In this document: positions 28,785 through 44,000 of the stretch, piece after piece
Layout of the letters: every line of letters begins with the position of its first letter
Position numbering within the stretch: the stretch's first letter is position 1
Assembly: GCA_964522445.1 (NCBI GenBank)
Contig: CAZFUY010000001.1
Span: 387 to 64,386, forward strand
Source: an uncultured Thiotrichaceae bacterium
Lineage (GTDB): Bacteria > Pseudomonadota > Gammaproteobacteria > SZUA-229
DNA: 64,000 nt
Reading direction: 5' to 3'
The notes under the pieces: model-generated
Told to the model about the DNA's origin: nothing
The model's database searches: none
The model's input: only the letters and a program-made list of their open reading frames with translations
Position numbers and translations under genes: made by a program

Positions 28785-28785
28785 C

Positions 28786-29271
28786 TTAATCTTCGTTTGA
28801 AAAAGGTAATAATATATAACGAAGGGATATAACAGCAAAAGAAATGGGGATAATGGATTCACATATCCATAATGGGATGCTGGCAAAAGCTATGTCGCCA
28901 CTTTCTTTTTCTAAAAGAATAAAACTAAAACTATAATATGCAACAATAGCGCAAATAATAGCAGTAAAAAACTGGCAAAATATTTTGCTGAATGCTGCGG
29001 TTTTTTCTGGCAGGTATTTAGATAGTAGATCAATATTAATATGTTTGTCATTACGACTGGCAATCATTGCGCCAATCAGGCCAAGCCAGAGTACTAATAT
29101 TCTTAAGAAAGGATCACCCCATTGTATGCCGCTTTGAAAAAAGTTACGTAGAATAATTTGTAAAACAGCAAGCCCAAGCATTGAGGTTAATAAGGATACA
29201 ATAATGCCATCTTCAATTTTATGAAGGATAAATATAGATTTTTTAAATAGATTATTGTGCCTGTTGTTCAC
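28786..29271 (-). CDS. dctQ: TRAP transporter small permease DctQ (second system)
   Basis: 161 aa, 4 TM helices, sits between dctP and dctM. Start overlaps the dctP end by 20 nt. Confidence 0.7.
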   Translation of the reverse strand: MNNRHNNLFKKSIFILHKIEDGIIVSLLTSMLGLAVLQIILRNFFQSGIQWGDPFLRILVLWLGLIGAMIASRNDKHINIDLLSKYLPEKTAAFSKIFCQFFTAIICAIVAYYSFSFILLEKESGDIAFASIPLWICESIIPISFAVISLRYILLPFSNED

Positions 29272-30286
29272 TAAGCTGGGTCTGTTGTGATCTAAAGTTA
29301 CTTAGGTGCATTAGAAATTCATCCATTGTCTCTTTAGATATGTTTCCATTCAACTTGATGTTGTTAATAGCAGCCTCTGATTTTTTATACCATTGGCTTA
29401 ATTCATTTTTAGATGGGTTAACGAGTTTGATGCCCTGGTTTTGTAATGCGCTTATGGCTGCCAGGTTGTCTTTTCTATTTTTCTTGCCAATTTTAATAAA
29501 AGCTGCGGTCATGATTGACTTTACAATTTTCTGGTCATCTTTTTTTAATTTATAAAAAGTTTTTTTATCTAAAGCTAAAACGGCATAAGCATAGATTAGT
29601 GGGATATTGGTTATGTATTTTATTTGTGTGTGCCATTGTAAAGCAATAGCACCTATGGGTGGTATTGCTATGGTGTCAATCATATTAGATTGTAGCCCTG
29701 TTAAAACATCTGCAATACCTAGTGGTATAGGAGTGATGCCAAAAGCTGAAAATGCTGTTTGAGCAGATTTGTTGCCGGAGGGCGACCAGATTTTATGCTG
29801 TAATAAATCATCGGTGCTTTTAATGGCTGAATCAGACATTATATAGGCAAGGCCGCCTTCACTAAGGCCAAAGATTATGAGCCCAGATTTTTCAAAACCA
29901 CTAATGATTTTTTGATCCATATGTTGGCGAACGTAATCAATTTCTGAGAAGTTTTTAAATACAAGAGGCAAGTTATAAACCTGGCTGTCCGGGAGGAATT
30001 TTGCTACAGAACCACTGGCCATGACGCCGCCATGTAACTGGTTAATGCGCATTTTTTTGAGAACTGAGTTGTCATCTCCCATAACCCCACCGGGGTAGAA
30101 TTTAAACTTAACACGGTTATCGGTTCTTTTGGTAACCTCTTGTGCTGCATGTTTCATGGTTTTCATCCATGCTGAGCCGCCAGGTGCAAGTGTTGCAATT
30201 TTTAGTGTTTTTGCATTTGATGGAGTTGTGATGAGCTGGCTGCATAAAATGATTATGGAATAAAGAAAAAATTGTTTATGCATCAA
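29252..30286 (-). CDS. dctP: TRAP transporter substrate-binding protein DctP (second system)
   Basis: Signal peptide, then KTLKIATLAPGGSAWMKTMKHAAQEV DctP-family N-terminal motif. Confidence 0.8.
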   Translation of the reverse strand: MMHKQFFLYSIIILCSQLITTPSNAKTLKIATLAPGGSAWMKTMKHAAQEVTKRTDNRVKFKFYPGGVMGDDNSVLKKMRINQLHGGVMASGSVAKFLPDSQVYNLPLVFKNFSEIDYVRQHMDQKIISGFEKSGLIIFGLSEGGLAYIMSDSAIKSTDDLLQHKIWSPSGNKSAQTAFSAFGITPIPLGIADVLTGLQSNMIDTIAIPPIGAIALQWHTQIKYITNIPLIYAYAVLALDKKTFYKLKKDDQKIVKSIMTAAFIKIGKKNRKDNLAAISALQNQGIKLVNPSKNELSQWYKKSEAAINNIKLNGNISKETMDEFLMHLSNFRSQQTQLSEQQAQ

Positions 30287-30349
30287 TGCTATTACCGAAA
30301 GGCCATTTATTTTTGAGTTAAATATTTTAATAGAAATATCCTGCCGTTA

Positions 30350-31195
30350 TTAAAAATAATCATTTGAGCCAGCCAGTAATTCTTTTGCCTGTTTCTGGGC
30401 GGCGGTATTACTTAGTGTCATGCCTGGTACTCTTGGGTTTGTATTTAAAACTTCTTTAAGTAATTTGTCGTGTAGTTTTTTATCAAAAATAAGCCGTGAG
30501 TAATGGCGTGCGTACAAGACTTTTGCCATTAGATTTTTATTATTTGAAAGTAAAATAGCTTTTTCAAAGTGCTGTTTGCCTAATTCAGGTTTGCCGCCCA
30601 TGGCAGGAGGAAGTAATGAATTGAGTACACCCATATATAGATGTGCGCCTGCGTGTTGATAGTTTTCATTCAATTCTAGCACTTTGTTCATAATTAGTTT
30701 TACCTGTGCTATTTGTGCAATAGCATTCCAGTCTTCAGTATTGGCCTGTATCCAGCTGGCCCAGGTAACGCCTAAAGTGTATAGCGTATCAATGTCATCT
30801 TCATCCATATTGGAAATTATAACCTGTACCTGGCTGTATTTTTGTGATGTGATATTACAGCCTTGTTCATTGTGCAGGCACATGGCTTTGCTGGCGAGGC
30901 GTAAGGCTTTCTGGAGTAATTTTTTTTTGCGGTTTTTGTTGCTAACAAATATGCCTGCATAAGCGTTTGTTAATGATGCTGAAGTTTTAAGCATGTTTTC
31001 GTCTTCAGGGTCATCCTCTAACATGCTGTCTATAAGAATTAAGTAAGCGGGTAAACCATCTGCAATAGTTTGCATGTCATCATTGTTTAGCACAGCACTG
31101 GATAAATTCTTTGAAAATCTTTCGCTAATAGAACAGCCGCTAATAAGAATAAGCAGGACGGTTAAAAAAATGTAGCGTAGAAAATTTAAATTCAT
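30350..31195 (-). CDS. TPR-like lipoprotein, probable TRAP-associated TatT-family component
   Basis: Lipobox LISGCSIS. 281 aa helical protein directly upstream of dctPQM on the same strand, as in TPR-protein-associated TRAP (TPAT) systems. Confidence 0.45.
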   Translation of the reverse strand: MNLNFLRYIFLTVLLILISGCSISERFSKNLSSAVLNNDDMQTIADGLPAYLILIDSMLEDDPEDENMLKTSASLTNAYAGIFVSNKNRKKKLLQKALRLASKAMCLHNEQGCNITSQKYSQVQVIISNMDEDDIDTLYTLGVTWASWIQANTEDWNAIAQIAQVKLIMNKVLELNENYQHAGAHLYMGVLNSLLPPAMGGKPELGKQHFEKAILLSNNKNLMAKVLYARHYSRLIFDKKLHDKLLKEVLNTNPRVPGMTLSNTAAQKQAKELLAGSNDYF

Positions 31196-31431: not shown

Positions 31432-31445
31432 TTGATCTTCGTCAA
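31432..31445 (+). promoter_or_regulatory. FNR/DNR/NnrR-type box (TTGAT-N4-GTCAA) about 85 bp upstream of nosZ
   Basis: tTTGATcttcGTCAAt: 9/10 match to TTGAT-N4-ATCAA. Position is compatible with a class II activator site. Confidence 0.35.
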
Positions 31446-31525: not shown

Positions 31526-33823
31526 ATGATAAAAACAGCCAAGAAGGCGCTGGCACTGCTGACAGGCTTAGGGGTCGGTCTATCAGTTAGCACAAGCGCA
31601 CTATCGGGCACAGCGCTTGATGATGTGATGAAGGCACGCGGCCTGACACAGAAAGATTTGCTGGCAGCAGCAAAAACCTATACACCAACTGGTGGCCGAG
31701 ATGAATATCTGGCGTTTAGTTCTGGTGGCCAGAGTGGGCATGTTATTGTTTACGGTATCCCTTCAATGCGTATTTTGAAATACATTGGGGTATTTACACC
31801 AGAGCCATGGCAGGGCTATGGTTTTGATGAAGAATCAAAGAAAGTCCTGAGACAGGGTAATATTCGGGGTAAAGAAATCAATTTTGGTGATACTCATCAT
31901 CCAGCCATTTCTGAAACCAATGGTGAATACGATGGCCGTTGGTTATTTATTAATGACAAGGCTAATCCACGAGTTGCTGTTATTGATTTGCATGACTTTG
32001 AAACCAAGCAAATTGTTGTTAATCCTGTGTTTAAATCTCAGCATGGTGGTGCATTCGTATCTGAAAATACAGAATATATTATTACTGCTGCTCAATATGC
32101 TACACCGTATGAAAATAAATATGTTCCTCTGGAGCAGTTCAATGACAAATACCGCGGTGGTATGACTTACTGGAAGTTTGACAGGAAAAAAGGTCGTATT
32201 GATGAGAAAAACTCATTTATTGTAATGGCACCACCTTACAGCCAGGATTTATCTGACTTTGGTAAAGGGCCATCACATGGCTGGTCATTCACCAACTCTT
32301 TCTGTTCAGAGCGTTATGTTGGCGGTATCGAGAAAGGTCGTCCTCCTTATGAGGCGGGCTGTTCTTCTAAAGATACTGACTTTATGCACGTTGTGAACTG
32401 GGAAAAAGCAGCAAAAGTTGTTAAAGCGGGTAAATTCAAGACTATTAATGGCGCTAAGGTCATCACTATCAAAACAGCCATTAAAGAAGGTCTGTTATAT
32501 CTGATTCCAGAGCCAAAGAGTCCTCATGGCTCAGATGTAACACCTGATGGTAAATACATTATTGTATCCGGTAAGCTGGACAGCCATACCACGGTATATA
32601 GTTTTGACAAAATTATGAAAGCCATCAAGAACAAGAAGTTCGAAGGCAAAGATCCCTATGGTATCCCAATTATCTCAATGAAAGATACTGTGCATAAACA
32701 GGTTGAGCTAGGCTTAGGTCCATTGCACACCCAGTTTGATTCTAGAAAATGTATTGCTTATACATCTTTATATGTAGATTCAATGGTTGGTAAGTGGGAT
32801 TACTGTAAAGGTAAACTACTGGATAAAATTTCTATCCACTATAACATTGGTCACCTGATGACAATGGAAGGTGATAGTAAGTCTCCTGATGGAAAATATC
32901 TGGTTGCTTTAAACAAGCTGGCAATTGACCGATTTAACCCTGTTGGCCCATTGCATCCGCAGAATCATCAGTTGATTGATATCAGCGGTGACAAAATGCA
33001 GCTGTTATACGATATGCCAATTCCACTGGGTGAACCTCACTATGTTGTTGCAATTAAAGCTGACAAGCTGAAACCTCACAATCGTTATAAGTCAGGTTGG
33101 AACAGCCGTGAAGACAAGCGCTCACCATTTAAAACACGTGCGGGTCGTGAAAAGACTGTGCATACACCAGGAAAAGTGGAAGTGTTTGGTACAACTATTC
33201 GCTCACACATCACGCCTGAAACTATTGAGGCAGAAGTGGGTGATGAAGTTATTATTCACTTAACCAACCTTGAACGTGCGGAAGATGAAGTGCATGGCTT
33301 TGCAGTGTATGGTCAGAATGTACAGTTGTCACTGGAGCCAGGTAAGACTGCAACGGCTCGCTTTATAGTGGATAAAGAGGGTGTTTTCCCTTACTACTGC
33401 ACAGAGTTCTGCTCAGCATTGCATTTAGAAATGCAGGGCTATCTGTTAGTTAAGCCTAAAGGTTATAAAGGTAAGAAGGGTAAGATTCAGGAAGGTGTGA
33501 AGTATACCGAGGCTGATTATAACAAGCAGGTTAAGACCAATATTCAAACCCAGGCAATAATTGATTCAGTTGTTAAGTTTATCACTAGCCATAACTACAC
33601 AGATTTCAAAATTGTAGTAGCGCTGGTAGAAGATGCAACCGATCAGTTAGGTTTTGCAGAAGAAGCGAAGAAAAAATCTGAAGCAGCCGCTGCCAAAAAA
33701 GATTGGCAAAATGCCATGTTATGGGCTAACCAGTGGTGGCAGTATCAGGTTAAGACTGCAGACATGGGTTTACGCGCCAAGACTTATCTAGAACAGAATG
33801 GTGCTAAGAAAATTAAGAAGTAG
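31526..33823 (+). CDS. nosZ: Nitrous-oxide reductase NosZ, Sec-dependent (clade II-like), with a C-terminal extension of about 120 aa
   Basis: GDTHHPAISETNG (CuZ His pair), DKANPRVAVIDL, CuA motif YYCTEFCSALHLEMQG at residues 624-637. Signal peptide without twin-arginine. 765 aa. Confidence 0.9.
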   Translation: MIKTAKKALALLTGLGVGLSVSTSALSGTALDDVMKARGLTQKDLLAAAKTYTPTGGRDEYLAFSSGGQSGHVIVYGIPSMRILKYIGVFTPEPWQGYGFDEESKKVLRQGNIRGKEINFGDTHHPAISETNGEYDGRWLFINDKANPRVAVIDLHDFETKQIVVNPVFKSQHGGAFVSENTEYIITAAQYATPYENKYVPLEQFNDKYRGGMTYWKFDRKKGRIDEKNSFIVMAPPYSQDLSDFGKGPSHGWSFTNSFCSERYVGGIEKGRPPYEAGCSSKDTDFMHVVNWEKAAKVVKAGKFKTINGAKVITIKTAIKEGLLYLIPEPKSPHGSDVTPDGKYIIVSGKLDSHTTVYSFDKIMKAIKNKKFEGKDPYGIPIISMKDTVHKQVELGLGPLHTQFDSRKCIAYTSLYVDSMVGKWDYCKGKLLDKISIHYNIGHLMTMEGDSKSPDGKYLVALNKLAIDRFNPVGPLHPQNHQLIDISGDKMQLLYDMPIPLGEPHYVVAIKADKLKPHNRYKSGWNSREDKRSPFKTRAGREKTVHTPGKVEVFGTTIRSHITPETIEAEVGDEVIIHLTNLERAEDEVHGFAVYGQNVQLSLEPGKTATARFIVDKEGVFPYYCTEFCSALHLEMQGYLLVKPKGYKGKKGKIQEGVKYTEADYNKQVKTNIQTQAIIDSVVKFITSHNYTDFKIVVALVEDATDQLGFAEEAKKKSEAAAAKKDWQNAMLWANQWWQYQVKTADMGLRAKTYLEQNGAKKIKK

Positions 33824-33844
33824 GCTTATAAATAAGTCGTAAAA

Positions 33845-33875
33845 CGGGGGAGCATTTTGCTCCCCCATTTTTGTT
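33845..33875 (+). terminator. Rho-independent terminator directly after nosZ
   Basis: acgggggagcattttgctcccccatttttg. Confidence 0.55.
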
Positions 33876-33944
33876 TTATAAAAACTAAATAGCTTGATTC
33901 CTGTGTGGGTAAATAATACGGCTCAAGTTCCGGAGATTAAAGTA

Positions 33945-34271
33945 ATGAAGAATAAAGTATTAACAATCGTTTCAGCACTATTATTATCAATGGCAGTTAA
34001 CACATCTTACGCAATTGATGGTGCGGCTATATTTAAAAACCCTGCAAAAGGTGGCTGTGCTGCATGTCATGGTAAGGATGCTAAATCACCAATAATGAAT
34101 AACTATCCAAAACTTGCGGGTCAAAATGAAGCGTATATTTTTCAGCAGTTAAAGGATATTAAAAGTGGCAAACGTAATAATGGTATGACGGCTGCAATGA
34201 AAGGCATAATGCATATGGTAAATGAAGACGAGATGAAAGCGATAGCAAAATATCTGTCATCATTAAAATAG
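33945..34271 (+). CDS. Monoheme class I c-type cytochrome (NosC-like electron donor candidate)
   Basis: Signal peptide MKNKVLTIVSALLLSMAVNTSYA. Single CAACHG motif and a distal Met region (MTAAMKGIM). GGAG RBS. The ORF-track N-extension to 33894 is probably spurious. Confidence 0.75.
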   Translation: MKNKVLTIVSALLLSMAVNTSYAIDGAAIFKNPAKGGCAACHGKDAKSPIMNNYPKLAGQNEAYIFQQLKDIKSGKRNNGMTAAMKGIMHMVNEDEMKAIAKYLSSLK

Positions 34272-34428
34272 CGGTTTTTATAAAAAATTTTGAGCAATTA
34301 TTTTTTTGATAGACATCAAGGTAATTACTTAGTCAAATTGAAAAAATAACCATAACCATAACAATAACATTAAGATTAAATAAGAGAGCCGGATAAACAT
34401 GTCCGGCTCTCTTGTCAGGAGAATATAC

Positions 34429-35154
34429 ATGACAGCAAGTAAAAAACTGATATCAACATTTTCTGCCATTTTTGTGGCAATGAGCTTCAGCGTGTCAGCA
34501 CAGGCTGCGGGCTGGAATGTCGATGGTGGCGAAAAAGATGAAGCGATGCATTTAAAAGGTAATATGGAAGACGGCCTTGATGTATTTGAGGTCTGCTCAG
34601 CATGCCACTACCCTGAAGGCTGGGGTACAAAAGATGGTACTTTTCCACAGTTAGCGGGGCAACATAAAGAAGTGTTGATCAAACAGCTGGCTGATATTCG
34701 GGCGCGAAATCGTGATAATCCAACGATGTACCCTTTTGCACTGCCTGAATCAATTGGCAGTGCTCAGGCTCTGGCCGATGTTGTTGCCTATATCGCAAAA
34801 TTGCCTATGAATCCTGATAATGGTAAAGGCAAATGGGCTAAAGGTACATCAGAACATTCGCAGGGCGAAAAATTATTTAAAGATAATTGTGTGAAGTGTC
34901 ATGGTGATCATGGTGAGGGCAAAAAGGAAAAATACTATCCCAAAATACAGGGCCAGCACTATAAATATATGCTACGTCAGTTCGAGTGGATTCGTGATGG
35001 CAAACGCCGCAATGCAAATCCAGATATGGTTAAGCAAATTAAAGACTTTACAGATAAAGACATGGAAATGGTTATAAATTACGTCTCACGTATATCTGTA
35101 CCTAAGAAAGATGTAGCGTCATCAAAAGACTGGAAAAATCCAGATTTTGATTAA
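34429..35154 (+). CDS. Diheme c-type cytochrome (cytochrome c4-like)
   Basis: Two CxxCH (CSACHYPEGWG, CVKCHGDHG). Signal peptide from the internal Met MTASKK with AGGAGA RBS. The ORF-track N-extension to 34399 is probably spurious. Confidence 0.75.
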   Translation: MTASKKLISTFSAIFVAMSFSVSAQAAGWNVDGGEKDEAMHLKGNMEDGLDVFEVCSACHYPEGWGTKDGTFPQLAGQHKEVLIKQLADIRARNRDNPTMYPFALPESIGSAQALADVVAYIAKLPMNPDNGKGKWAKGTSEHSQGEKLFKDNCVKCHGDHGEGKKEKYYPKIQGQHYKYMLRQFEWIRDGKRRNANPDMVKQIKDFTDKDMEMVINYVSRISVPKKDVASSKDWKNPDFD

Positions 35155-35212
35155 AACCATGTAAAAACTTCCTCACAGAAGGAAGCTTATGGAATAAAAT
35201 TTAACAGGGTAC

Positions 35213-35256
35213 AGACGGGGTGCATATTGTAAGATATAGCACCCCGTATTTTTTTA
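35213..35256 (+). terminator. Rho-independent terminator between the cytochrome genes and nosB
   Basis: acggggtgcatattgtaagatatagcaccccgtattttttt. Confidence 0.5.
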
Positions 35257-35278
35257 CGCCAAGCTTTTGAGGTTAAGT

Positions 35279-36274
35279 ATGAATGACACTGCTAATAACA
35301 ATAATAAACGTACACTATTAGTTGCGGGTTTAGCGGGCATTGCACTTGTATTATTAGCGATTGTTTATTTCACTCCAATCTGGTGGGTTTCACTTAAAGC
35401 ACCCAATTATCCGCCTGAAGCATTTCCTGATGGTATTCGTATTCATTTTCATTTTAATGGAGTCTTTAACGGCTGCCAGAAAGTTGAAAGCACAGAAGTT
35501 ATTGTAGAAGAGGCGCTTAATTGTGTTCATGAAATGGATACCATTAACCATTATGTTGGCATGTATCCCATTGCCAGTGGCGGACCAATTGAGCGAGTGC
35601 TTTCACAATTTCTGGTTACTTTTCTTGGTGTACTGATTGTTGCTTTTGTGATCCGAAAGAAGAAATTACGCGCAGTATTTATGAGTATTGGTTTTGGTGC
35701 AATAGCTGTCTGGATGTCTATGGCTATGTACAATGAAGGTGGTGTAATGATGCTGTCTGATGGTTATCGCGCAGCATTACAATCCTCACTTGATCTTGAT
35801 GTGGAAGACATACAGCACTGGAGTGGGCTGGAAGCTGTAACAGAAAGTTATCGTGACACATTGGGTATTTATTTTCGACAACAGGAAATTATAGGCCCAA
35901 AAGTAGCATCGCTTGAAGCATGGACCAATGGTCTTATCTACGCACTTATGGCTGTGATGTTGTTACTTATTATTGGTCCTTTTATACACAATATTTTTTA
36001 CTGGTTATTAGTTCTTGTTCCCATGATGTTACCGGTATTTTTTATTATCGATTATGCAGGGTGGTTATGGTATTTCGGTCATAACTTAAATGATATGGGT
36101 GCATTTACAGTTAAACCATTTATGCCAACTGTATTTGGGCAGGGTAAAGTGGCACAATTCTCAACCCATTCTTATCCCCATACGGGGTTTTTTATTATGA
36201 TGGCAATATCAGCTGTTTTAGCTGTTGCTGCAATTACACGTCATCGGCAAATAGAAGATGAAGGTGTTTTGTAA
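35279..36274 (+). CDS. nosB: Polytopic membrane protein at the nosB position of clade II nos clusters (putative NosB)
   Basis: About 330 aa, 5-6 predicted TM helices. Sits between the nosZ/cytochrome genes and nosD. Confidence 0.5.
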   Translation: MNDTANNNNKRTLLVAGLAGIALVLLAIVYFTPIWWVSLKAPNYPPEAFPDGIRIHFHFNGVFNGCQKVESTEVIVEEALNCVHEMDTINHYVGMYPIASGGPIERVLSQFLVTFLGVLIVAFVIRKKKLRAVFMSIGFGAIAVWMSMAMYNEGGVMMLSDGYRAALQSSLDLDVEDIQHWSGLEAVTESYRDTLGIYFRQQEIIGPKVASLEAWTNGLIYALMAVMLLLIIGPFIHNIFYWLLVLVPMMLPVFFIIDYAGWLWYFGHNLNDMGAFTVKPFMPTVFGQGKVAQFSTHSYPHTGFFIMMAISAVLAVAAITRHRQIEDEGVL

Positions 36275-36352
36275 TTCTGAACTCTATAGTGATGAGAAAT
36301 GTCATACTCGTAAACTTCAGTAAGTTATTAAGGATTTTTTAGGTAAAAGTAA

Positions 36353-37579
36353 ATGAGGCGCTTATTCTTCTTAGTGTTTAGTATCGTATTGCTCATAAAT
36401 AGCCAGCTAGTATTCGCGTCAGAATTAAAGCTGCTGCAGCCACTAATTGATGAAGCAAAAAAAGGCGACACAATTGTTTTAGAGCCAGGAATTTATAAAG
36501 GTCCAGTGACTATTGAGAAATCCATTACACTGGATGGCCAGGGTGAAGCAACAATAGATGCAGGAGGAGAAGGTTCGGTTATTTTTCTTGATACAGATGG
36601 TGCAGTGATTCGTGGCTTACGTTTAACTAATTCAGGTGAATCACACAATGACCTGGATTCTGGTGTTCAGGTTCGCGGCAATTTTAATGTTATAAAAGAT
36701 AATATTATAGATAACTGTTTATTTGGAATTGATCTACAACAGTCAGAAAATAATATTGTACGACGGAATGAAATTAGCTCTAAACCTGTTGATCTTGGTA
36801 TGCGCGGTGATGCTATTCGTTTATGGTATAGCTTTGGAAATAAAATAACTCATAATTATATTCATGATTCAAGAGATACCGTTGTCTGGTACTCAAAAAA
36901 TAATATTATTTCACATAATAAATCGACTCGTGGTCGTTACGCGTTACATTTTATGTATGCACAATATAATAAAATTGAAAACAATAAATACTGGGATAAT
37001 TCAGTCGGTATTTTCTTAATGTATTCTGATAGTGTTGAAATTAGAAACAATGAAATATCACATGCCTCTGGGCCAACGGGTGTGGCTATAGGCATGAAAG
37101 AAACATCGGATGTTATTATTGAAGGTAATAAATTACTTTATAATGCAGTAGGTGTTTATCTGGATGTTTCTCCTTTTCAGCCAGACACAGTTAATCTGAT
37201 AAACAATAATCTGGTTGCATTTAATAATATTGGCGTTCGATTTTTAAATGACTGGCCGGGTAATCATTTTAATAAAAATATTTTTAAAAGTAATATTACA
37301 TCAGTTTCCGTAAGCGATGGTGGTACAGCAAATCGAAATAAATGGGATGGTAATTACTGGGATAACTATGAAGGTTTTGATCTTAATAAAGATGGTATAG
37401 GTGATACACCGCATCGTTCATTTTCTTATGCGGATCGCTTGTGGATGGATGTGCCGTCAGCTCAGTTTTTTAAAGGCTCTCCTATGCTAGAGGTTTTAGA
37501 TTTTCTGGAAAGACTTGCTCCATTTTCGCCACCTGAAATGGTATTCCAGGATTCAACCCCCAGGATTTATGTAGATTAA
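36353..37579 (+). CDS. nosD: NosD, periplasmic right-handed beta-helix copper-processing protein
   Basis: Signal peptide. Repeated parallel-beta-helix motifs (NNIIDNCLFGIDL, NNEISHASGPTGVAIG, NNLVAFNNIGVRF). 408 aa. Followed by nosF/nosY. Confidence 0.85.
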   Translation: MRRLFFLVFSIVLLINSQLVFASELKLLQPLIDEAKKGDTIVLEPGIYKGPVTIEKSITLDGQGEATIDAGGEGSVIFLDTDGAVIRGLRLTNSGESHNDLDSGVQVRGNFNVIKDNIIDNCLFGIDLQQSENNIVRRNEISSKPVDLGMRGDAIRLWYSFGNKITHNYIHDSRDTVVWYSKNNIISHNKSTRGRYALHFMYAQYNKIENNKYWDNSVGIFLMYSDSVEIRNNEISHASGPTGVAIGMKETSDVIIEGNKLLYNAVGVYLDVSPFQPDTVNLINNNLVAFNNIGVRFLNDWPGNHFNKNIFKSNITSVSVSDGGTANRNKWDGNYWDNYEGFDLNKDGIGDTPHRSFSYADRLWMDVPSAQFFKGSPMLEVLDFLERLAPFSPPEMVFQDSTPRIYVD

Positions 37580-37581
37580 TT

Positions 37582-38424
37582 ATGAGCGATAAAGTTAATA
37601 AAAATGGAGCAGGAAAAAATAAAAAGCCACGCTTATCTCGTAAAGAGCGCGCACGTCGTGAATTTATTAGATCCGTTGTGCTGGCGGCAGGTGTCGTAGG
37701 TGTTGCAGGCGCAGGTTATTACCCAGTAGTAAAAAATAAAGCTTTGCGTTTACGTCCACCGGGCGCACTAGATGAAGATGAGTTTCTAGCAGCCTGTATT
37801 AAGTGTGGTCAATGTGTTCAGGTATGTCCTGTAGAAGCTATAAAGCTTGCAGATATTATGGATGGTTTTGGTATTGGTGTGCCTTATATTGATGCGCGTC
37901 CACAGGCCTGTGATTTTTCCTGTGATGGAATGCAATGTGTCCTCGCCTGTCCAACGGGCGCTTTAACTCATGAGTTAAATTATTCACATGAAACTCGAAT
38001 GGGGTTTGCACGATTATCTCGTCCGCATAAATGTCTGGCAGTACAGGGTAAAGGTTTTAAAGGTTTAGCCAGAGGAGCTGAATTTAAAGGTAAATTGCGT
38101 TATGACGATATTGATCGCTGGGTGCCACAATCTGTTGCAGAGCAGAACTATGATATTGAACTATGTGATCTTTGTGTTCGCCAGTGCCCTATTGAAATTC
38201 GTCGTAATCAATGTGATGCAGGCAAGCCACCATCGGGTGATAAAAATCAGTGCCCACCTAAAAAGGCAATTGAACTCATTGCAATTGATGAACAATCAGG
38301 TAGTGCAGCAATGAGGCCAGAAGTTATGGAGGGTTGTGTAGGTTGTGGCGTATGTGAAATGATTTGTCCTGTTGATCCGCCCGCTATTGTTATTGATGCA
38401 CGTAAGGAAGCACCAGTAGCATGA
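37582..38424 (+). CDS. nosG: NosG, NapG-like periplasmic 4Fe-4S ferredoxin (Tat signal)
   Basis: RLSRKERARREFIRSVVLAAGVVGVAGAG twin-arginine signal. Four Cys clusters (CIKCGQCVQVCP, CVLACP, CDLCVRQCP, CVGCGVCEMICP). Confidence 0.8.
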   Translation: MSDKVNKNGAGKNKKPRLSRKERARREFIRSVVLAAGVVGVAGAGYYPVVKNKALRLRPPGALDEDEFLAACIKCGQCVQVCPVEAIKLADIMDGFGIGVPYIDARPQACDFSCDGMQCVLACPTGALTHELNYSHETRMGFARLSRPHKCLAVQGKGFKGLARGAEFKGKLRYDDIDRWVPQSVAEQNYDIELCDLCVRQCPIEIRRNQCDAGKPPSGDKNQCPPKKAIELIAIDEQSGSAAMRPEVMEGCVGCGVCEMICPVDPPAIVIDARKEAPVA

Positions 38425-39419
38425 ATTATATAAAAGAATCATTAGCTCAGTTGTTTGGTGCAAGTCCTAAAAAACCTCTAAAGGAAGAGATTAAACCTGC
38501 GGCACAGGAAATTCATTTTTATAAAAAAGCCAATCCAGTTAGTAAAGCGTACATAGAAGAATTACATGCTGCTGGACATGGTAATAAATGGCGTAATCGT
38601 CGTTGGCTAACTCTATTATTTATAAACCTGTTATTTGTACTTTCGTATTATCTTGATATTCAACTTTTAGAAGGTGCGCTAACAGCATCACGATTTGCTG
38701 GCTTTCATATGGCTGATTTAAATTCGGCATTGCAGGTTATGCTGGCATTTAAAGAAGTGGTTTTAAACTTAATAATAGGAACAACAACAATTTTGATTAT
38801 GTGGCTATTGCTTGGTGGCCGCACATTCTGTTCCTGGGTTTGCCCTTATCATTTACTGGCAGAATGGGCAGAAGCAGTTCATCTTTGGCTGGTTAATAAA
38901 AAGATAATTGAAAATAAAACATTTCATCGTGGCATGCGAACCATTCTTTATGTTGTTTTTGCCTTACTGGCTTTTGTTACTGGCTATACAGTATTTGAAA
39001 CGATTTCACCAACAGGAATATTAAGTCGCGCATTAATCTACGGTCCTGGTTTTGCATTGATATGGGTGGGTGTGCTTTTATTATTTGAAGTATTTGTTTC
39101 GCGTCGTGCATGGTGTCGTTATGTTTGCCCTATTGGTATGACATACGGCATAGTTGGTGTGATTTCACCCATGCGCGTTACTTATCATGCAAAAGATTGT
39201 GCGCATGAAGGTGATTGCAGAAAAGTTTGTTTAGTGCCGCATGTTTTAGAACCAACGATTAAAGGCAGAGCCAGAGATCATCGTATTGATCTGGGTGCAG
39301 ATTGTACACGCTGTGGTTTATGTATAGATCTTTGCCCAACAGATTCACTAAGATTTGAATTTAAAATGCCAGGTCAGAAAAATATAGATCATAAAAATCA
39401 GGTAAGTAATCATGATTGA
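38421..39419 (+). CDS. nosH: NosH, NapH-like membrane-bound ferredoxin
   Basis: ATGA overlap with nosG. Four TM helices and two C-terminal Fe-S Cys motifs (CRKVCLVPH, CTRCGLCIDLCP). CxxC..CP in a TM loop (CSWVCPY, CRYVCPIG). Confidence 0.75.
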   Translation: MNYIKESLAQLFGASPKKPLKEEIKPAAQEIHFYKKANPVSKAYIEELHAAGHGNKWRNRRWLTLLFINLLFVLSYYLDIQLLEGALTASRFAGFHMADLNSALQVMLAFKEVVLNLIIGTTTILIMWLLLGGRTFCSWVCPYHLLAEWAEAVHLWLVNKKIIENKTFHRGMRTILYVVFALLAFVTGYTVFETISPTGILSRALIYGPGFALIWVGVLLLFEVFVSRRAWCRYVCPIGMTYGIVGVISPMRVTYHAKDCAHEGDCRKVCLVPHVLEPTIKGRARDHRIDLGADCTRCGLCIDLCPTDSLRFEFKMPGQKNIDHKNQVSNHD

Positions 39420-40281
39420 GTTTCAGCAGGTCAGTAAACAATTTAAAAAAGTATCCGTATTAAAGAAAATTAATTTGAATCTTGATGCAGGTAATCGTGT
39501 TGCGCTTGTCGGCTCAAATGGTGCAGGTAAAACAACATTAATAAGATGCCTGTTGGGAGAATATAATTATGATGGAGCTGTTTTAGTTGATGGATTAAAT
39601 CCACGTGATAATCGTCAACTGGTTTTAAAACGTATCGGTTTTGTACCGCAATTGCCACCACCTTTAAAAATGCCTGTGGGTCAGTTAATAAATTTCTCAG
39701 CCAGTGTTTGTGATGCAGATGCAGACAGAATGAAACATGTTGCAAAACGACTGGGGCTGGATGTTGAACAAATAATTAATCGTCCTTTTGTTAAATTATC
39801 GGGTGGTCAGAAACAGAAATTACTTATTAGTATTGCGCTGGGTCGTGATACAGATATTTTAATTCTGGATGAACCTGCTGCTAATCTTGACCCTGAAGCA
39901 CGACATATATTCTTTCAGTTATTATCAGAAAAACCAGAACATACCATTATGTTAATTTCCAGCCATCGACTTGATGAAGTTGCATCATTAGTAAATAGAG
40001 TGATTGAAATGGATCAGGGGCAGGTGGTACTGGATGATCATGTTGAAGACCTTGTCGATTTAACCAGTAAGCTCTATTGCAGAATCGGTTTAATAAAAGC
40101 AGAACCGGCATTTTCCAAAGCGATTAGTGACTGGGGCTTTACAGAGTCAGGTGACGGAAAAATATGGCAGGGCCAGGTTGCCGGGCCAGATCGGTTACGT
40201 TTTCTTGGCGTACTATCTCGATATGCAGGCCTGCTTTCAAGCATACAGATGGATGAACAGGAGGTTGAGTATCATGCATAA
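39412..40281 (+). CDS. nosF: NosF, ABC transporter ATP-binding protein
   Basis: Walker A GSNGAGKTT, signature LSGGQKQK, Walker B ILILDEP. Confidence 0.85.
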   Translation: MIEFQQVSKQFKKVSVLKKINLNLDAGNRVALVGSNGAGKTTLIRCLLGEYNYDGAVLVDGLNPRDNRQLVLKRIGFVPQLPPPLKMPVGQLINFSASVCDADADRMKHVAKRLGLDVEQIINRPFVKLSGGQKQKLLISIALGRDTDILILDEPAANLDPEARHIFFQLLSEKPEHTIMLISSHRLDEVASLVNRVIEMDQGQVVLDDHVEDLVDLTSKLYCRIGLIKAEPAFSKAISDWGFTESGDGKIWQGQVAGPDRLRFLGVLSRYAGLLSSIQMDEQEVEYHA

Positions 40282-40753
40282 AATACTGGCATTATTTTTA
40301 CTTGTGTTTTTAACCGCCTGTGAAAAAAATCAGACAGGTCCCGTTGAAGTTAAATGGGATCGTGATGCATGCGAACGTTGCCGTATGGTGTTAAGTGATC
40401 GTATGCATGCTGCTCAAATTAGAGGTGGAGAAGAAGGCAGTAAATCAAAGATTTATAAATTTGATGATATCGGTGGCGCTATTCTCTGGTTACAGGATAA
40501 GTCATGGAAAGATGATGCAAAAACAGAAATCTGGGTTAATGATCATCGAGATGGTCGCTGGCTGGCGGCACATGATTCATGGTTTATTAAAGGTCATATT
40601 ACACCCATGGAATTTGGTCTGGGTGCGCAGGATATGAAAACAGAAGATGCAATGAGTTATAGAGAAGCGGTAAATTATATAATTGATCGTGAACAGCGAT
40701 TTAATAAATCAGGCGCAGATCTAAAAGGGCAAATGCATGAACACCAGCACTGA
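40274..40753 (+). CDS. nosL: NosL, copper-chaperone lipoprotein
   Basis: Internal Met MHKILALFLLVFLTAC (lipobox) overlapping the nosF stop. DACERCRMVLSDRMHAAQI and FDDIGGAIL match the NosL CxxCxM copper-site region. The ORF-track start at 40127 is a spurious N-extension inside nosF. Confidence 0.7.
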   Translation: MHKILALFLLVFLTACEKNQTGPVEVKWDRDACERCRMVLSDRMHAAQIRGGEEGSKSKIYKFDDIGGAILWLQDKSWKDDAKTEIWVNDHRDGRWLAAHDSWFIKGHITPMEFGLGAQDMKTEDAMSYREAVNYIIDREQRFNKSGADLKGQMHEHQH

Positions 40754-41654
40754 AGCAATAGTTGATAAACTGAGTTTGAATGAAAAACAATTACAACTTA
40801 AGTCGGCATCTGGCACTATGTCCACCATGAAACATCTATGGTTAACTGCCTGGGCAGATATTGTCGAATCGATGCGAGCGCGCTGGTTTATGGTGTATGC
40901 CGGAATATTCGGCAGTATTGTGGTTTTATTATTTGTCTTTGGTCTGACCGAATCACGGATAATGGGCTTTACTGGCCTGTCTCGTTTGTTAATAACCTAT
41001 ATACAGCTCACCATGGCGATACTGCCTATTTTTGTATTGATTACCACTGTCAGATCGGTTGCAGGAGATCGTGAGGCAGGAGTATTCGAATACATGCTGT
41101 CATTGCCGGTATCACTGTCTGCATGGTACTGGGGTAAAACATTTGGGCGTTTTGCTGTTATTTTTATGCCAGTATTTATGGCCATGTTAATTGCGATAAT
41201 TGTCGGTGTTATTCGTGGCGCAGAAGTGCCATGGACATTATTTACTTATTACACGGGTTTACTTATTGTTCTTTCATGGTGCTTTCTTGGCATCGGCATG
41301 TTGATATCAAGCATTGCAAGAACGGCTGATGTTGCCACAGGTGCGGCATTTGTTATCTGGTTAGTATTAATATTATTTCTGGATTTAATTTTGCTCGGTA
41401 TTATGGTGCAGGAAGGCTTAAGTATGGAAGCCGCTGTGGCCGCATCGCTGGTTAATCCATTACAGGTTTTTAGAACAGCGGCAATGATGTTGTTTGATTC
41501 AAAATTGATACTGCTTGGGCCAACCGCGTATGTTATTTTAGATAACTTTAGCGTGAATGGTTATTTAACTTTTGCACTGTTATATCCATTGTTAATCGGT
41601 ACTGTAGCAGCAAGCACAGGTTACTGGTTATTTAAACGCAGTGATTTGCCATAA
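40737..41654 (+). CDS. nosY: NosY, ABC-2 type permease (start could alternatively be the internal Met at 40818)
   Basis: Six TM helices and ABC-2 permease topology downstream of nosF/nosL. The ATG at 40737 overlaps the nosL end. Confidence 0.75.
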   Translation: MNTSTEAIVDKLSLNEKQLQLKSASGTMSTMKHLWLTAWADIVESMRARWFMVYAGIFGSIVVLLFVFGLTESRIMGFTGLSRLLITYIQLTMAILPIFVLITTVRSVAGDREAGVFEYMLSLPVSLSAWYWGKTFGRFAVIFMPVFMAMLIAIIVGVIRGAEVPWTLFTYYTGLLIVLSWCFLGIGMLISSIARTADVATGAAFVIWLVLILFLDLILLGIMVQEGLSMEAAVAASLVNPLQVFRTAAMMLFDSKLILLGPTAYVILDNFSVNGYLTFALLYPLLIGTVAASTGYWLFKRSDLP

Positions 41655-41735: not shown

Positions 41736-42650
41736 ATGAGTGAACCCAATACACAAATTTTCCACGGCCAAACTCTTGGCAATAAAATAGCGACTTATAT
41801 TGCAGCAACACGCCCTCCATTTTTAACTGCATCAATACTTCCTGTTATTGCTGGCCTCGCTTTAGTTTGGGGAGAAATTAATTCATTAAATTTTGGCCTG
41901 GGTTTTTTAACCATTTTAAATATTATATTTATTCATGCAGGCTCCAATGTGCTTAATGATTATTTTGATGCGCGAAATGGAACGGATGACGCTAATACCA
42001 GTCGTATTTTTCCCTTCTCGGGCGGCAGTCGTTTTATACAAAATGGTGTTATGTCAGAAGAGCAAATGTTCAAGTATGGTTTTACATTAATGATGCTAGG
42101 TACAGTGCTTGGTGTTGCAATGACCGTTATTACCGGGCCGTTTATTTTAATTGTTGGTTTAATTGGTGGTTTGTTAGCTATTTTTTATTCAGCGCCACCC
42201 TGTCTTGCGTGCAGAGGTTTGGGTGATATAACTATAGCCCTCTGTTTTGGTGTCTTGCCTGTTGTGGGCACGGCATTTATCCAGACAGGAGAAATAATGA
42301 CTTCGGCAATCTGGTTGGGAGCAGTGATAGGTTGTTTTGTTGCAGCAATACTCTGGGTAAATTCAATACCTGATATCGACGCTGATCGAAAAGCAAATAA
42401 AATGACATTACCCGCAAGGCTAGGCAAAGATATTGCCACGCATGGCTTAGGATTATGGTTTGCATTAGGCTATGTCATTTTATTTTTTTCGCCATTACCT
42501 GCAACAAGTTACATTAGTTTGATAGCCATTATCCCCGCAGCAAAAGCAGCCAAAGGATTAGTTGATGGTAATTTAATGCCGGCTATACCTATGACGCTAA
42601 TGACTCATGCTGCTGTTTGTGTTTTATTAGCTATAGGCTGCGCTATTTAA
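41736..42650 (+). CDS. UbiA-family aromatic prenyltransferase (MenA-like)
   Basis: NDYFDARNGTDD (NDxxDxxxD Mg/prenyl-diphosphate motif). Eight or more TM helices. 304 aa. Confidence 0.7.
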   Translation: MSEPNTQIFHGQTLGNKIATYIAATRPPFLTASILPVIAGLALVWGEINSLNFGLGFLTILNIIFIHAGSNVLNDYFDARNGTDDANTSRIFPFSGGSRFIQNGVMSEEQMFKYGFTLMMLGTVLGVAMTVITGPFILIVGLIGGLLAIFYSAPPCLACRGLGDITIALCFGVLPVVGTAFIQTGEIMTSAIWLGAVIGCFVAAILWVNSIPDIDADRKANKMTLPARLGKDIATHGLGLWFALGYVILFFSPLPATSYISLIAIIPAAKAAKGLVDGNLMPAIPMTLMTHAAVCVLLAIGCAI

Positions 42651-42746
42651 TGTAGGAGTGGCTTTAGCCGCGATTAATCTTTTGTCTAGATAATATCGCT
42701 GCTAAAGCTGCTCCTACAAAAATAATAAATATTTAAAAGGTTTAGT

Positions 42747-43208
42747 ATGTGTAAAAAATGCTGGGTAATTGTTGCTCTGTTAATTGTTTTAGTGACAGGC
42801 ATGTTTATGAAGTTTGTTATTTTAGGTGAAACTGAAAAGCATGCCGATGGTAGAACAGCAATCAAATTAACAGAAGATGAAAAAAATATAGTATTAAGTG
42901 AAATGCGAGTATTTTTAATGAGCGTGCAACAAATTACTCAGGGCATTATTGATAAAGACATGCAGGCAGTTTCAAAATCTGCTCGACAGGTAGGTGCTGC
43001 TGCACAGGGTGGTGTGCCTGGTTCACTCATTAGAAAATTACCCATAGAGTTTAAAAAATTAGGTTTTGATACCCATTCAAAATTTGATCAGTTAGCACTA
43101 GATGCGGAACAGATGGGTGATGAGGAGTATGCGCTAACTCAGTTAAGTGAATTAATGCAGAATTGTGTGAGCTGTCATTCTGCTTTTAGATTTGTTGGAA
43201 CGAAATAG
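42747..43208 (+). CDS. Class II c-type cytochrome (cytochrome c' / c-556-like four-helix bundle)
   Basis: Single CVSCH heme motif at the extreme C-terminus, helical body, N-terminal signal/anchor. 153 aa. Confidence 0.6.
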   Translation: MCKKCWVIVALLIVLVTGMFMKFVILGETEKHADGRTAIKLTEDEKNIVLSEMRVFLMSVQQITQGIIDKDMQAVSKSARQVGAAAQGGVPGSLIRKLPIEFKKLGFDTHSKFDQLALDAEQMGDEEYALTQLSELMQNCVSCHSAFRFVGTK

Positions 43209-43256: not shown

Positions 43257-44000
43257 TTATTTATCATCAAGAATGGATAAATAAGAAAGAATATTATGTA
43301 TTTGTTCTTCTGTGAAATGAGACAGAAATGCTTCATCAGGCGCATCTTTATCGTGGATGCGTTTTTTATTTATAAACATTTTAATCTGGCGTTTTAAATA
43401 TTTGCTATATTGACCCGTTAGCATGGGTGCGCCTTTTTTGGGTTTGCCTTCGCCTTTTCTGCCGTGGCATGTTTTGCATTCTTTTTTATAGAGTTTTTTT
43501 CCAGCTTTAATATTACCATCAAGTTTTGCAATATTAAGCAGCTTTTTAGTCATCATCATACGTTCGTATGCGTCAAATTTTACATCTTTCACCAGGGGTG
43601 GTAATTTTGTGACCAGCTTTATTGATTCTAAATAAGCAGCTACATCAACTATTTCCTGGTCTGGAAGCTGGCCTTTATCAAGGTATTCCAGCATGGGCAT
43701 ATTGGGTCGAATTTTATCTCTAAATAAATGCAATTGATTTATGATATAAGCTGCGGGCAGGCTGGCCAGGCGTGGGTATTCGCCACCTTTACCACCTTCG
43801 GCGTATTCGCCATGACAGCCGGCGCAGGTTTCGTTTATCTCTTCACCTATTTCAAGGTCGGGTGGGTTTAGTTTTTCAGCAAATGATGGGCCTGTTATTA
43901 GAGTAAACAGGATAAATAATAGTTTTATGGCGGGTTTGTAAAGTGCAGAGAAATATTTATTAATAAGACCATAAAGATTTTTTCTTTTATTTGCGTTCAT
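43257..44000 (-). CDS. Diheme c-type cytochrome (c4/c553-like), co-oriented with fccAB
   Basis: Two CxxCH (CAGCHGEYAEGG, CKTCHGRKGEGK). Signal peptide. Confidence 0.75.
   Translation of the reverse strand: MNANKRKNLYGLINKYFSALYKPAIKLLFILFTLITGPSFAEKLNPPDLEIGEEINETCAGCHGEYAEGGKGGEYPRLASLPAAYIINQLHLFRDKIRPNMPMLEYLDKGQLPDQEIVDVAAYLESIKLVTKLPPLVKDVKFDAYERMMMTKKLLNIAKLDGNIKAGKKLYKKECKTCHGRKGEGKPKKGAPMLTGQYSKYLKRQIKMFINKKRIHDKDAPDEAFLSHFTEEQIHNILSYLSILDDK

Follow-up and report, generated by a model that had tools for sequence, protein, structure and literature searches.

The potent greenhouse gas nitrous oxide (N2O) has its main biological sink in clade II N2O reducers, and in coastal sediments much of this clade II capacity belongs to sulfur-oxidising Gammaproteobacteria. 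In Wolinella succinogenes and other Campylobacterota, the nos genes are arranged in the order nosZ-B-D-G-C1-C2-H-F-Y-L and encode a Sec-type NosZ, NosB, the NapGH-like pair NosGH, c-type cytochromes and NosDFYL, with no NosR or NosX. Clade I clusters, such as those of Pseudomonas stutzeri, Paracoccus and Marinobacter, follow the pattern nosRZDFYL(X) and have a Tat-exported NosZ. A further set of clusters belongs to what we refer to as the Dechloromonas–Magnetospirillum–Thiocapsa lineage, which takes in Dechloromonas aromatica, Azospira, Azonexus, Sulfuricella and Sulfuritalea (Rhodocyclales/Betaproteobacteria) together with Thiocapsa, Sedimenticola, Thiodiazotropha and Magnetovibrio. An arrangement of nosZ, two cytochromes c, nosD and napGH-like genes was described in D. 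aromatica in 2009 (PMC2907700), published tables of metagenome-assembled genomes (MAGs) for this lineage put nosB three genes from nosZ, and sulfur-oxidising Gammaproteobacteria are reported to dominate its clade II nosZ in coastal sediment (PMC6440730).

Gene content and order of the nos cluster

The DNA analysed here, a single stretch of 64 kb that we refer to as the window, carries a ten-gene nos cluster on the forward strand (positions 31526-41654) in the order nosZ, monohaem cytochrome c, dihaem cytochrome c, nosB, nosD, nosG, nosH, nosF, nosL and nosY (Table 1). A first-pass annotation had assigned these genes, and a gene-by-gene comparison found every open reading frame (ORF) where it had been placed. 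Its two statements on order also hold: nosZ and nosB enclose the cytochrome genes, and nosL stands between nosF and nosY. All ten ORFs are intact, with lengths that match those of their relatives. Judged from its sequence, the locus is very likely a complete and apparently functional clade II N2O respiration module of the Dechloromonas–Magnetospirillum–Thiocapsa lineage, resident in the chromosome of an uncultured marine gammaproteobacterium; the same host has a gene for a flavocytochrome c sulfide dehydrogenase. The DNA is a public metagenome contig, and the host is known solely from such contigs; exact look-up found its NosL, NosD and UbiA proteins already on record in metagenome assembly GCA_006243105.1 and run SRR6439370 and found no record of the NosZ protein.

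The surprise over this architecture implied in the first-pass annotation is not borne out by comparison with related loci. Our comparison of gene order took in those loci with enough flanking sequence, about 55 from Alpha-, Beta- and Gammaproteobacteria, and all of them have the identical ten-gene order, including those of the cultured species Thiocapsa roseopersicina, Azonexus hydrophilus and Magnetovibrio blakemorei. The layout is the rule rather than the exception for the proteobacterial clade II lineage, and the features described as atypical are typical of that lineage. Because dozens of related public genomes show matching gene order, we regard the cluster as real but ordinary, of the Sec-exported clade II type; it is a further intact case, from a member of the group not in culture, and leaves the picture of how a nos cluster is built unchanged.

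Apart from gene order, the locus shares with the other members of its lineage a C-terminal extension of NosZ, a Sec-type NosZ and a Tat-type NosG, at NosZ identities of 71-90%; the differences lie in the flanks alone. Upstream of the present cluster is a TRAP-T operon, and downstream of it are genes for a MenA-like UbiA protein and a cytochrome c', whereas several relatives are instead flanked by men genes, Sco1, TlpA, nirS or Crp/Fnr genes. The host itself differs from those of its relatives as an uncultured marine gammaproteobacterium of low G+C content (~39%). The Campylobacterota system has the same components, and the core motifs of NosB are conserved between the two, but several features set it apart from the present locus: in place of a cytochrome c domain, NosZ here ends in a helical domain; NosB is not fused to NosC2 and contains ~80 inserted aa; the cytochromes (one of them dihaem) are encoded between nosZ and nosB, not between nosG and nosH; and the order is F-L-Y rather than F-Y-L. 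The two cytochromes could not be shown to be orthologues of NosC1/NosC2. With clade I the locus shares identical CuA and CuZ ligands as well as NosD, NosF, NosY and a probable NosL; in contrast to clade I, NosZ is exported by the Sec rather than the Tat route, NosR and NosX/ApbE are missing, and NosB, NosGH and dedicated cytochromes are added. The absence of nosR and nosX had been asserted before, and neither NosR nor ApbE was found in any window ORF of at least 120 aa.

Table 1 Features of the nos cluster and its immediate surroundings (window positions)
Feature	Position	Strand	Description
Candidate FNR/Crp-type box	31432..31445	+	TTGATCTTCGTCAA, 1 mismatch; ~80 bp upstream of the nosZ ATG
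nosZ	31526..33823	+	765 aa; clade II nitrous-oxide reductase of the Sec-exported type; conserved helical extension of ~120 aa at the C-terminus (residues 645-765)
Intrinsic-terminator-like hairpin	33846..33876	+	9-bp stem, 7 GC pairs, T-rich tail; just 3' of nosZ
Monohaem class I cytochrome c	33942..34271	+	PF00034, one CxxCH; signal peptide; positional NosC1 analogue
Candidate FNR/Crp-type box	34306..34319	+	TTGATAGACATCAA, exact; intergenic, upstream of the dihaem cytochrome gene
Dihaem (c4-like) cytochrome c	34399..35154	+	PF00034 twice; CxxCH at residues 66 and 164; signal peptide
nosB	35267..36274	+	Clade II-specific polytopic membrane protein; no cytochrome c (NosC2) fusion
nosD	36353..37579	+	Periplasmic beta-helix maturation protein; TIGR04247 388 bits (cut-off 300); PF05048
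nosG	37582..38424	+	Probable Tat-exported NapG-like poly-ferredoxin; four Cys clusters; RREFIR
nosH	38421..39419	+	NapH-like membrane quinol dehydrogenase subunit; four TM-like segments
nosF	39412..40281	+	ABC ATPase of NosDFY; PF00005 (generic); position conserved in all relatives
nosL	40274..40753	+	Probable copper-chaperone lipoprotein; lipobox LTAC; CxxCxM motif (CERCRM)
nosY	40737..41654	+	ABC-2 permease of NosDFY; PF12679 (generic); five to six TM-like segments
MenA-like UbiA-family prenyltransferase	41736..42650	+	PF01040; under MenA cut-offs; 82 bp after nosY, same strand
Cytochrome c'-like (class II) monohaem protein	42747..43208	+	PF01322 26.2 bits (cut-off 26.5); C-terminal CxxCH

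NosZ is of the Sec-exported clade II type

NosZ was assigned to clade II by a whole-protein score above the cut-off of the Sec-dependent model TIGR04246 (890 bits, cut-off 625) and above its score on the Tat-dependent model TIGR04244 (392 bits, below the cut-off of 625); the clade III L-NosZ model scored 186. The Sec-type signal peptide was called by inspection of motifs: the N-terminus reads MIKTAKKALALLTGLGVGLSVSTSALS and contains no twin-arginine (RR) pair; 68 of the 69 related NosZ proteins likewise lack one. The earlier call of a Sec-exported clade II enzyme therefore stands, and NosZ falls outside clade I, being under the TIGR04244 cut-off, without RR and with no adjacent nosR or nosX/apbE. 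Where the CuZ and CuA motifs had been read from the sequence, we recovered the full ligand sets, namely H124, H125, H173, H334, H401, H443 and H505 for CuZ and H590, C625, C629, H633 and M636 for CuA (H...C-x3-C-x3-H-x2-M), all invariant in 81 sequences. Both sets align onto the ligands of PDB 1QNI, numbered as in the original structure paper.

NosZ bears a conserved, uncharacterised C-terminal domain. This tail is 72% conserved; an AF2 model (one of five) folds it into a three-helix bundle with a pLDDT of 71, and a Foldseek search against the PDB returned generic helical bundles alone, at E values of at least 0.47. In two relatives (loci L008 and L011), the domain is duplicated and followed, in the same ORF, by 4 or 10 fused cytochrome c domains (4 and 10 haem motifs). 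A tentative reading, on balance an unlikely one, is that the 120-aa helical domain serves as a docking module for the cytochrome donor of NosZ.

Cytochromes, NosB and the NosGH pair

The positions of the mono- and dihaem cytochrome genes are conserved in relatives, and the true start of the dihaem protein is probably the Met at 34429. The cytochrome c domains fused to NosZ in L008 and L011 are closest to the product of the monohaem gene (45-58% identity); by a Rosetta-stone argument, these fusions therefore point to the monohaem cytochrome as an electron donor to NosZ. We also considered both cytochromes as orthologues of NosC2 and found no support for this assignment: they match the Sulfurimonas NosC2 domain at E values of 1e-5 to 3e-6, no better than unrelated cytochromes of the window, one of which (45351-45944) gives 2e-8. 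For this reason, we treat them as NosC1/NosC2 analogues solely by position and function.

No Pfam or NCBIfam model exists for NosB, and its identity was established with reference proteins from the literature. BLASTP against the Sulfurimonas denitrificans protein ABB45043 aligned two blocks at 40-43% identity (E 5e-25 and 2e-19), with a similar result for AHJ13378 of Sulfurospirillum multivorans, which bears out the NosB-like assignment made earlier. The protein has six hydrophobic, TM-like segments and an AF2 model with a pLDDT of 80 that rises above 90 in the TM helices. It has more than 3,600 homologues, and among the matches listed these are unnamed or hypothetical and without a Pfam domain. 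In all relatives, as here, nosB lies directly upstream of nosD and two genes after nosZ.

Both halves of the NosGH pair had been recognised in the first pass. NosH scores 244 bits on TIGR02163 (NapH/MauN family; cut-off 213), in keeping with a NapGH-like membrane subunit. NosG, a probable NapG-like protein, has the Tat motif noted earlier, and an RRxF motif is kept in 56 of 59 relatives; it matches NapG models best, over its N-terminal half only and under their cut-offs (133 bits against 269 on NF007012; 104 against 179 on the other model). With NapG and NapH models as the top matches, one may postulate that the two proteins serve periplasmic nitrate reduction and that the cluster is a mosaic instead of a single functional unit. 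NosG, however, falls short of the NapG equivalog cut-off. Neither napA nor napB was found in the 64 kb; nosGH sits between nosD and nosF, with reading frames that overlap those of its neighbours, and it holds this position in all of the ~55 related loci. We consider a borrowed nitrate reductase pair extremely improbable and retain NosGH as an integral part of a single nos module.

Maturation proteins and integrity of the module

On the Pfam NosL family (PF05573), NosL gives a weak match (17.2 bits against a cut-off of 24, E 0.0069), and its sequence alone found no match among PDB sequences; homologues at 51-65% identity contain the PF05573 domain and bear the name NosL in their source records, and the top PDB match of the family profile is P. 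stutzeri NosL (7osf_H), again weakly (E 0.016).

The divergence of NosL and NosG from curated models could be taken as a sign of decay or silencing, with the cluster a remnant that has lost N2O reduction. This divergence is common to the whole lineage, known N2O reducers included; moreover, all metal ligands are invariant and none of the ten ORFs is broken or shortened relative to its counterparts. A remnant is accordingly a most improbable reading, and we favour an intact module.

Predicted regulation and N2O respiration

Two candidate FNR/Crp-type boxes lie in the cluster region. Sequences of this type occur in the window at about twice the rate expected by chance (12 matches against 6.5 expected), so the single site at 31432..31445 is weak evidence, and its place within the 330-bp region upstream of nosZ is no more than suggestive. 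The box upstream of the dihaem cytochrome gene is the sole exact match in the 64 kb. The hairpin after nosZ suggests an abundant monocistronic nosZ transcript with some read-through. Expression would probably be controlled by an FNR/Crp-type regulator, with two predicted promoters, one ahead of nosZ, followed by the terminator, and one ahead of the dihaem cytochrome gene. A scan of the window with Rfam gave no match to an RNA family.

The steps of N2O respiration can be proposed from established knowledge of NosDFYL in P. stutzeri and of NosGH and NosB in W. succinogenes. On sequence grounds, NosD, NosF and NosY form an ABC-type maturation set and NosL is a probable lipoprotein copper chaperone; NosG, with its Tat motif, and NosH are a probable iron-sulfur membrane pair of the NapGH type; and NosB is the clade II-specific membrane protein, accompanied by two secreted class I cytochromes c. 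NosZ would be exported unfolded via Sec and metallated in the periplasm, where NosL would pass Cu(I) to NosDFY and NosDFY would build CuZ. Electrons would leave the quinol pool via NosGH, probably with a bc1 complex as a further route, reach the mono- and dihaem cytochromes c and then CuA, and N2O would be reduced to N2 at CuZ. NosB is predicted to be required for N2O respiration, by analogy with the genetics of Wolinella. The flavocytochrome c sulfide dehydrogenase near the cluster fits sulfide-driven N2O reduction. Only the role of NosB, the conserved tail of NosZ and the men-nos association described below merit follow-up.

Genomic context and inheritance

The gammaproteobacterial context noted in the first pass is upheld by the nearest relatives and by a flanking gene order common to related MAGs; the window contains no rRNA. 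One may nevertheless ask whether the cluster entered its host recently, as a genomic island of foreign origin, which would explain an architecture regarded as non-gammaproteobacterial. NosZ proteins of this lineage are spread over Alpha-, Beta- and Gammaproteobacteria (71-90% identity), which implies that the lineage has at some time undergone horizontal transfer; in addition, a four-gene TRAP-T transporter block (27501-31195) that adjoins nosZ is absent from three relatives (L001-L003). However, the G+C content of the cluster (0.37-0.41) equals that of its flanks, GC skew is likewise continuous, and no integrase, transposase or tRNA lies at its borders. The upstream genes (20348-27451) are common to related MAGs; downstream, the UbiA, cytochrome c', flavocytochrome c sulfide dehydrogenase and octahaem cytochrome genes recur on a 240-kb contig of a relative; and the closest relatives of NosZ, NosB and NosL are all Gammaproteobacteria. 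We therefore judge recent acquisition to be improbable and, on the G+C content and the conserved order of the flanking genes, favour vertical inheritance of the cluster.

Association with menaquinone genes

In betaproteobacterial relatives, the nos cluster lies inside a bona fide men set (menB-menA-tlpA-menC / nos / ubiE/menG-menE), and, among the gammaproteobacterial relatives, several have nos flanked by menC, menE or a thioesterase gene. We found no report of a men-nos linkage in the literature searched. A tie between the proteobacterial-lineage nos module and a naphthoquinone (menaquinone-type) pool is a tentative idea, and on balance an unlikely one; if true, NosGH would oxidise menaquinol also in hosts that are classed as users of ubiquinone.

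The MenA-like UbiA gene of the present locus is possibly co-transcribed with the nos cluster; it holds the same position in the nearest long relative, and the cytochrome c' gene follows it in the nearest relative as well. We tried the UbiA protein as a nos-specific subfamily and rejected this, as nos genes lie near only 5 of the 80 metagenome loci that carry the subfamily; its commonest context among these loci is yebC-ruvC-UbiA-ruvA-ruvB.

Gene content and classification of the nos cluster

ORF inspection recovered the layout described in the first-pass annotation, with ten ORFs on one strand separated by short gaps or overlapping at their ends, and profile searches identified most of the products. 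On curated profiles the 765-aa NosZ scored 890 bits against the Sec-dependent TIGR04246 (cut-off 625) versus 392 bits against the Tat-dependent TIGR04244, whose cut-off of 625 was not reached, and 186 bits against a clade III L-NosZ model. NosD exceeded its cut-off on TIGR04247 (388 versus 300 bits), as did NosH, which had been described as a NapGH-like membrane protein, on the NapH/MauN model TIGR02163 (244 versus 213 bits); the top matches of NosG were NapG models, under cut-off and over the N-terminal half only. NosF matched as a generic ABC ATPase and NosY as an ABC-2 permease, and the two small ORFs 3′ of nosZ encode cytochromes c of class I, each with a signal peptide; the first has one CxxCH motif and the second two. 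A scan of all 56 ORFs with 120 aa or more in the 64-kb window found no NosR-like or ApbE-like product, in line with the reported lack of nosR and nosX.

The assignment of NosZ to the Sec-dependent clade II, borne out by these scores, also agrees with its N-terminus (MIKTAKKALALLTGLGVGLSVSTSALS...), from which a twin arginine is absent, as it is from 68 of 69 related NosZ N-termini. The CuZ and CuA motifs proposed earlier extend to the full ligand set: H124, H125, H173, H334, H401, H443 and H505 align with the seven CuZ histidines of 1QNI, a solved clade I structure, and H590, C625, C629, H633 and M636 with its CuA ligands, the 1QNI ligands being numbered as in the original structure paper. None of the twelve positions varies in an alignment of 81 sequences; the first CuZ motif reads DTHHPA, and the third histidine of the clade I motif DCHHPH is missing. 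Both the observation and the interpretation of the first-pass annotation are correct.

Because failed profile matches had been named there as grounds for rejection, NosB and NosL, which had no match in Pfam or NCBIfam at default thresholds, were checked by other routes. NosB has more than 3,600 homologues in databases; the 120 among the matches listed are all unnamed or "hypothetical" and none carries a Pfam domain, so the profile failure reflects a missing model. The candidate aligns to the field's reference NosB sequences (supplement of PMC11409646): two blocks of 40–43% identity to Sulfurimonas denitrificans NosB (E 5e-25 and 2e-19) span the motifs APNYPxEAFP...HEMxTINHYVGM and WxxFGHNL...KPFxPxxxGxGKVAQFxTHxYP, and Sulfurospirillum multivorans NosB gave the same result. 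Unlike these two proteins, which end in a cytochrome c (NosC2) domain, the window NosB has no such domain and contains an insert of ~80 residues. Six segments of the protein are hydrophobic, and an AF2 model predicts confident TM helices (pLDDT 80), the most conserved His/Met-rich periplasmic motifs being its lowest-confidence parts; no structural relative was found in the PDB. A lipobox (LTAC) identifies NosL as a lipoprotein, and a CERCRM motif is present; the protein reached 17.2 bits on the Pfam NosL family, under the cut-off of 24. The top PDB match of a 20-member family profile was P. stutzeri NosL (7osf_H, E 0.016), and many homologues at 51–65% identity have PF05573 and a NosL name (NCBI or JGI); we accept the predicted NosL assignment as remote but real.

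Architecture among relatives

A scan using one genome per species yielded 597 NosZ relatives, of which the best 80 (71–90% identity) were examined. The order nosZ, monohaem cytochrome c, dihaem cytochrome c, nosB-D-G-H-F-L-Y was found in every locus with enough flank (~55 loci). The loci with this order span Gammaproteobacteria (Sedimenticola, Thiohalomonas, Thiocapsa roseopersicina DSM 217, Ca. Thiodiazotropha and Thiothrix), Betaproteobacteria (Sulfuricella, Sulfuritalea and Azonexus hydrophilus DSM 23864) and Alphaproteobacteria (Magnetovibrio blakemorei and Terasakiella). A 2018 study of eelgrass sediment described a "Dechloromonas-Magnetospirillum-Thiocapsa" clade II lineage dominated by sulfur-oxidising Gammaproteobacteria (PMC6440730), a 2025 preprint termed the Rhodocyclales nos operon structure "known", and a published MAG table has nosB and nosZ three genes apart in taxa that include Dechloromonas and Denitratisoma. 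Given the same-order loci and this literature, cytochromes between nosZ and nosB, the order F-L-Y and a gammaproteobacterial host are typical of the lineage, and the unusualness implied in the first-pass annotation does not stand; the cluster is one ordinary case of a kind that is well populated and already published.

The predicted FNR/Crp boxes and the strong terminator-like hairpin (see table) offer weak evidence as regulatory signals. The exact box is the sole such copy in the window, and the box-terminator-box pattern resembles the two-promoter arrangement of Nitrosophilus labii, with Crp/Fnr sites 5′ of nosZ and nosB (PMC11539149).

Coordinates of the features discussed; L numbers denote genome loci of related nosZ
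Feature	Sequence	Position	Strand	Remarks
Upstream genes shared with three MAG contigs (L001–L003)	window	20348–27451
LPP20-family lipoprotein gene, then 512-aa ORF	window	25243–27451		ORF without Pfam/NCBIfam match; pair directly 5′ of nosZ in L001–L003
Conserved upstream neighbour	window	25913–27451
TRAP-T block	window	27501–31195	-	four genes: TAtT T-component, DctP-type binding protein, small and large permeases
FNR/Crp box	window	31432–31445		one mismatch; upstream of nosZ
nos cluster	window	31526–41654	+
NosZ tail, residues 645–765	window	33458–33820
Hairpin	window	33846–33876		3′ of nosZ
TTGAT-N4-ATCAA	window	34306–34319		upstream of dihaem cytochrome gene
UbiA-family prenyltransferase, MenA-like	window	41736–42650	+	strand of nosY; 82 bp 3′ of nosY
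UbiA and cytochrome c′-like genes	window	41736–43208	+
FCSD region	window	43257–45944	-	flavoprotein with a dihaem cytochrome c gene on each side; convergent with the nos region
Flavocytochrome c sulfide dehydrogenase (FCSD) flavoprotein	window	44045–45328	-	FCSD_central and FCSD flavin-binding domains
Octahaem-type multihaem cytochrome, then cytochrome b561-family membrane protein	window	46856–49121		PF11783 Cytochrome_cB and MtrC-like domain in the cytochrome
Second NosD-like parallel beta-helix protein	window	61149–62555		468 aa; PF05048 35.8 bits
Giant NosZ ORF	L008	2456–6319		1287 aa
Giant NosZ ORF	L011	9974–15697		1907 aa
men genes	L050	6243–9665		further men genes downstream of nosY

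NosZ tail, cytochrome fusions and proposed mechanism

The solved NosZ structures found matched to residue 646 at most, and the window NosZ continues into an extra C-terminal region of ~120 aa. This tail is present in 80 of 80 relatives (the best 80 of 597), with 72% mean identity versus 78% in the catalytic core, and belongs to no Pfam family. Structure prediction gives a three-helix bundle at modest confidence, for which no informative structural match was found.

In two Thiotrichaceae-like MAG contigs, L008 and L011, NosZ is a single giant ORF in which the core precedes a duplicated helical tail, and the tail copies precede a series of monohaem cytochrome c domains, 4 in one ORF and 10 in the other as counted by CxxCH; these polycytochrome fusions differ from Wolinella NosZ, which has one such domain. 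The giant ORFs may alternatively have arisen by misassembly of repeats. Their cytochrome domains are closest to the monohaem cytochrome of the window (45–58% identity), and because like domains are fused to NosZ, a Rosetta-stone argument points to this cytochrome as the direct electron donor of NosZ. Orthology of the two window cytochromes to Wolinella-type NosC1/C2 is not supported, their likeness to the Sulfurimonas NosC2 domain being no greater than that of unrelated window cytochromes.

Judged from sequence, the cluster encodes a Sec-type NosZ with every metal ligand in place, putative maturation proteins (NosDFY and NosL), NosB, a Tat-type NosG together with membrane NosH, and two predicted periplasmic cytochromes c. 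By analogy with P. stutzeri NosDFYL and W. succinogenes NosGH, NosC1/C2 and NosB (Hein et al. 2017, as cited by others), NosZ would be exported unfolded and loaded with copper in the periplasm via NosL and NosDFY; electrons would pass from quinol through NosGH, probably also through a bc1 complex, and then via the cytochromes c to CuA, and NosB would be needed for some step.

Genomic context

The nos cluster is resident and not a recent island. Its G+C (0.37–0.41) equals that of the flanks, the nearest relatives of NosZ, NosB and NosL among the matches listed are all labelled Gammaproteobacteria, and a 240-kb relative contig has the full downstream set of UbiA, cytochrome c′, flavocytochrome c sulfide dehydrogenase, DUF302, octahaem cytochrome, cytochrome b and redoxin. 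Metagenome assembly GCA_006243105.1 and run SRR6439370 hold identical copies of NosL, NosD and the UbiA protein encoded downstream, which marks the window as metagenomic sequence of an uncultured organism. The TRAP-T block separates nosZ from its conserved upstream neighbour and is absent at this position from L001–L003, whose label is likewise Gammaproteobacteria; this points to local insertion or loss.

The FCSD region is suggestive of sulfide oxidation by the host, which may also supply electrons for reducing N2O. DUF302 and redoxin genes adjoin the octahaem cytochrome, the whole set being kept in the 240-kb relative. Elsewhere, the window carries uvrD, polA, a GTPase gene, cytochrome c4, dsbA, mltC, c-di-GMP enzymes, TRAP transporters, ETF/ETF-QO, fatty-acid oxidation genes and the octahaem cytochrome with cytochrome b. 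The second NosD-like gene lies ~20 kb from the nos cluster, has no adjoining ABC transporter genes and is present in the relative contig too.

Menaquinone genes and other recurrent neighbours

The UbiA gene and the cytochrome c′-like gene directly after it are repeated behind nosY in the nearest relative (240-kb contig). The window protein (motif FPFSGGSRFIQNGV) falls under MenA HMM cut-offs. Of the 80 best loci (of 597), 17 have a UbiA/MenA gene no more than ~2.2 kb away from nos, and in several betaproteobacterial loci a men gene set encloses the cluster, with MenB at 494 bits (cut-off 380), MenA at 294 (cut-off 264), and MenC, MenE, a thioesterase and UbiE/MenG also present. The window's UbiA subfamily (motif GGSRFIQN) was considered as nos-specific and rejected: its most frequent context is yebC-ruvC-UbiA-ruvA-ruvB, mostly between ruvC and ruvA, and nos genes are nearby in 5 of 80 metagenome loci. 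The link between men/UbiA and nos is recurrent, not specific. No report of it was found in the literature searched, and it may bear on the quinol used by NosGH.

The men genes beside nos (menB, menA, menC, menE, thioesterase, ubiE/menG) occur in L049, L050, L053, L066, L067 and L073, and further in L004, L006, L012, L035, L036, L038–L040, L045 and L065; in betaproteobacterial loci they share one strand, as if nos had been inserted into a men operon. Sco1/SenC-like genes (CPDICP motif) stand beside nos in ~10 loci (L012, L015, L021, L022, L032, L043, L046, L057, L068, L079), as do TlpA-like thioredoxin genes in ~10 (L050, L053, L059, L060, L066–L068, L072, L074, L079); these neighbours, none of which is near the window's cluster, suggest extra copper-handling or thiol-reduction helpers.
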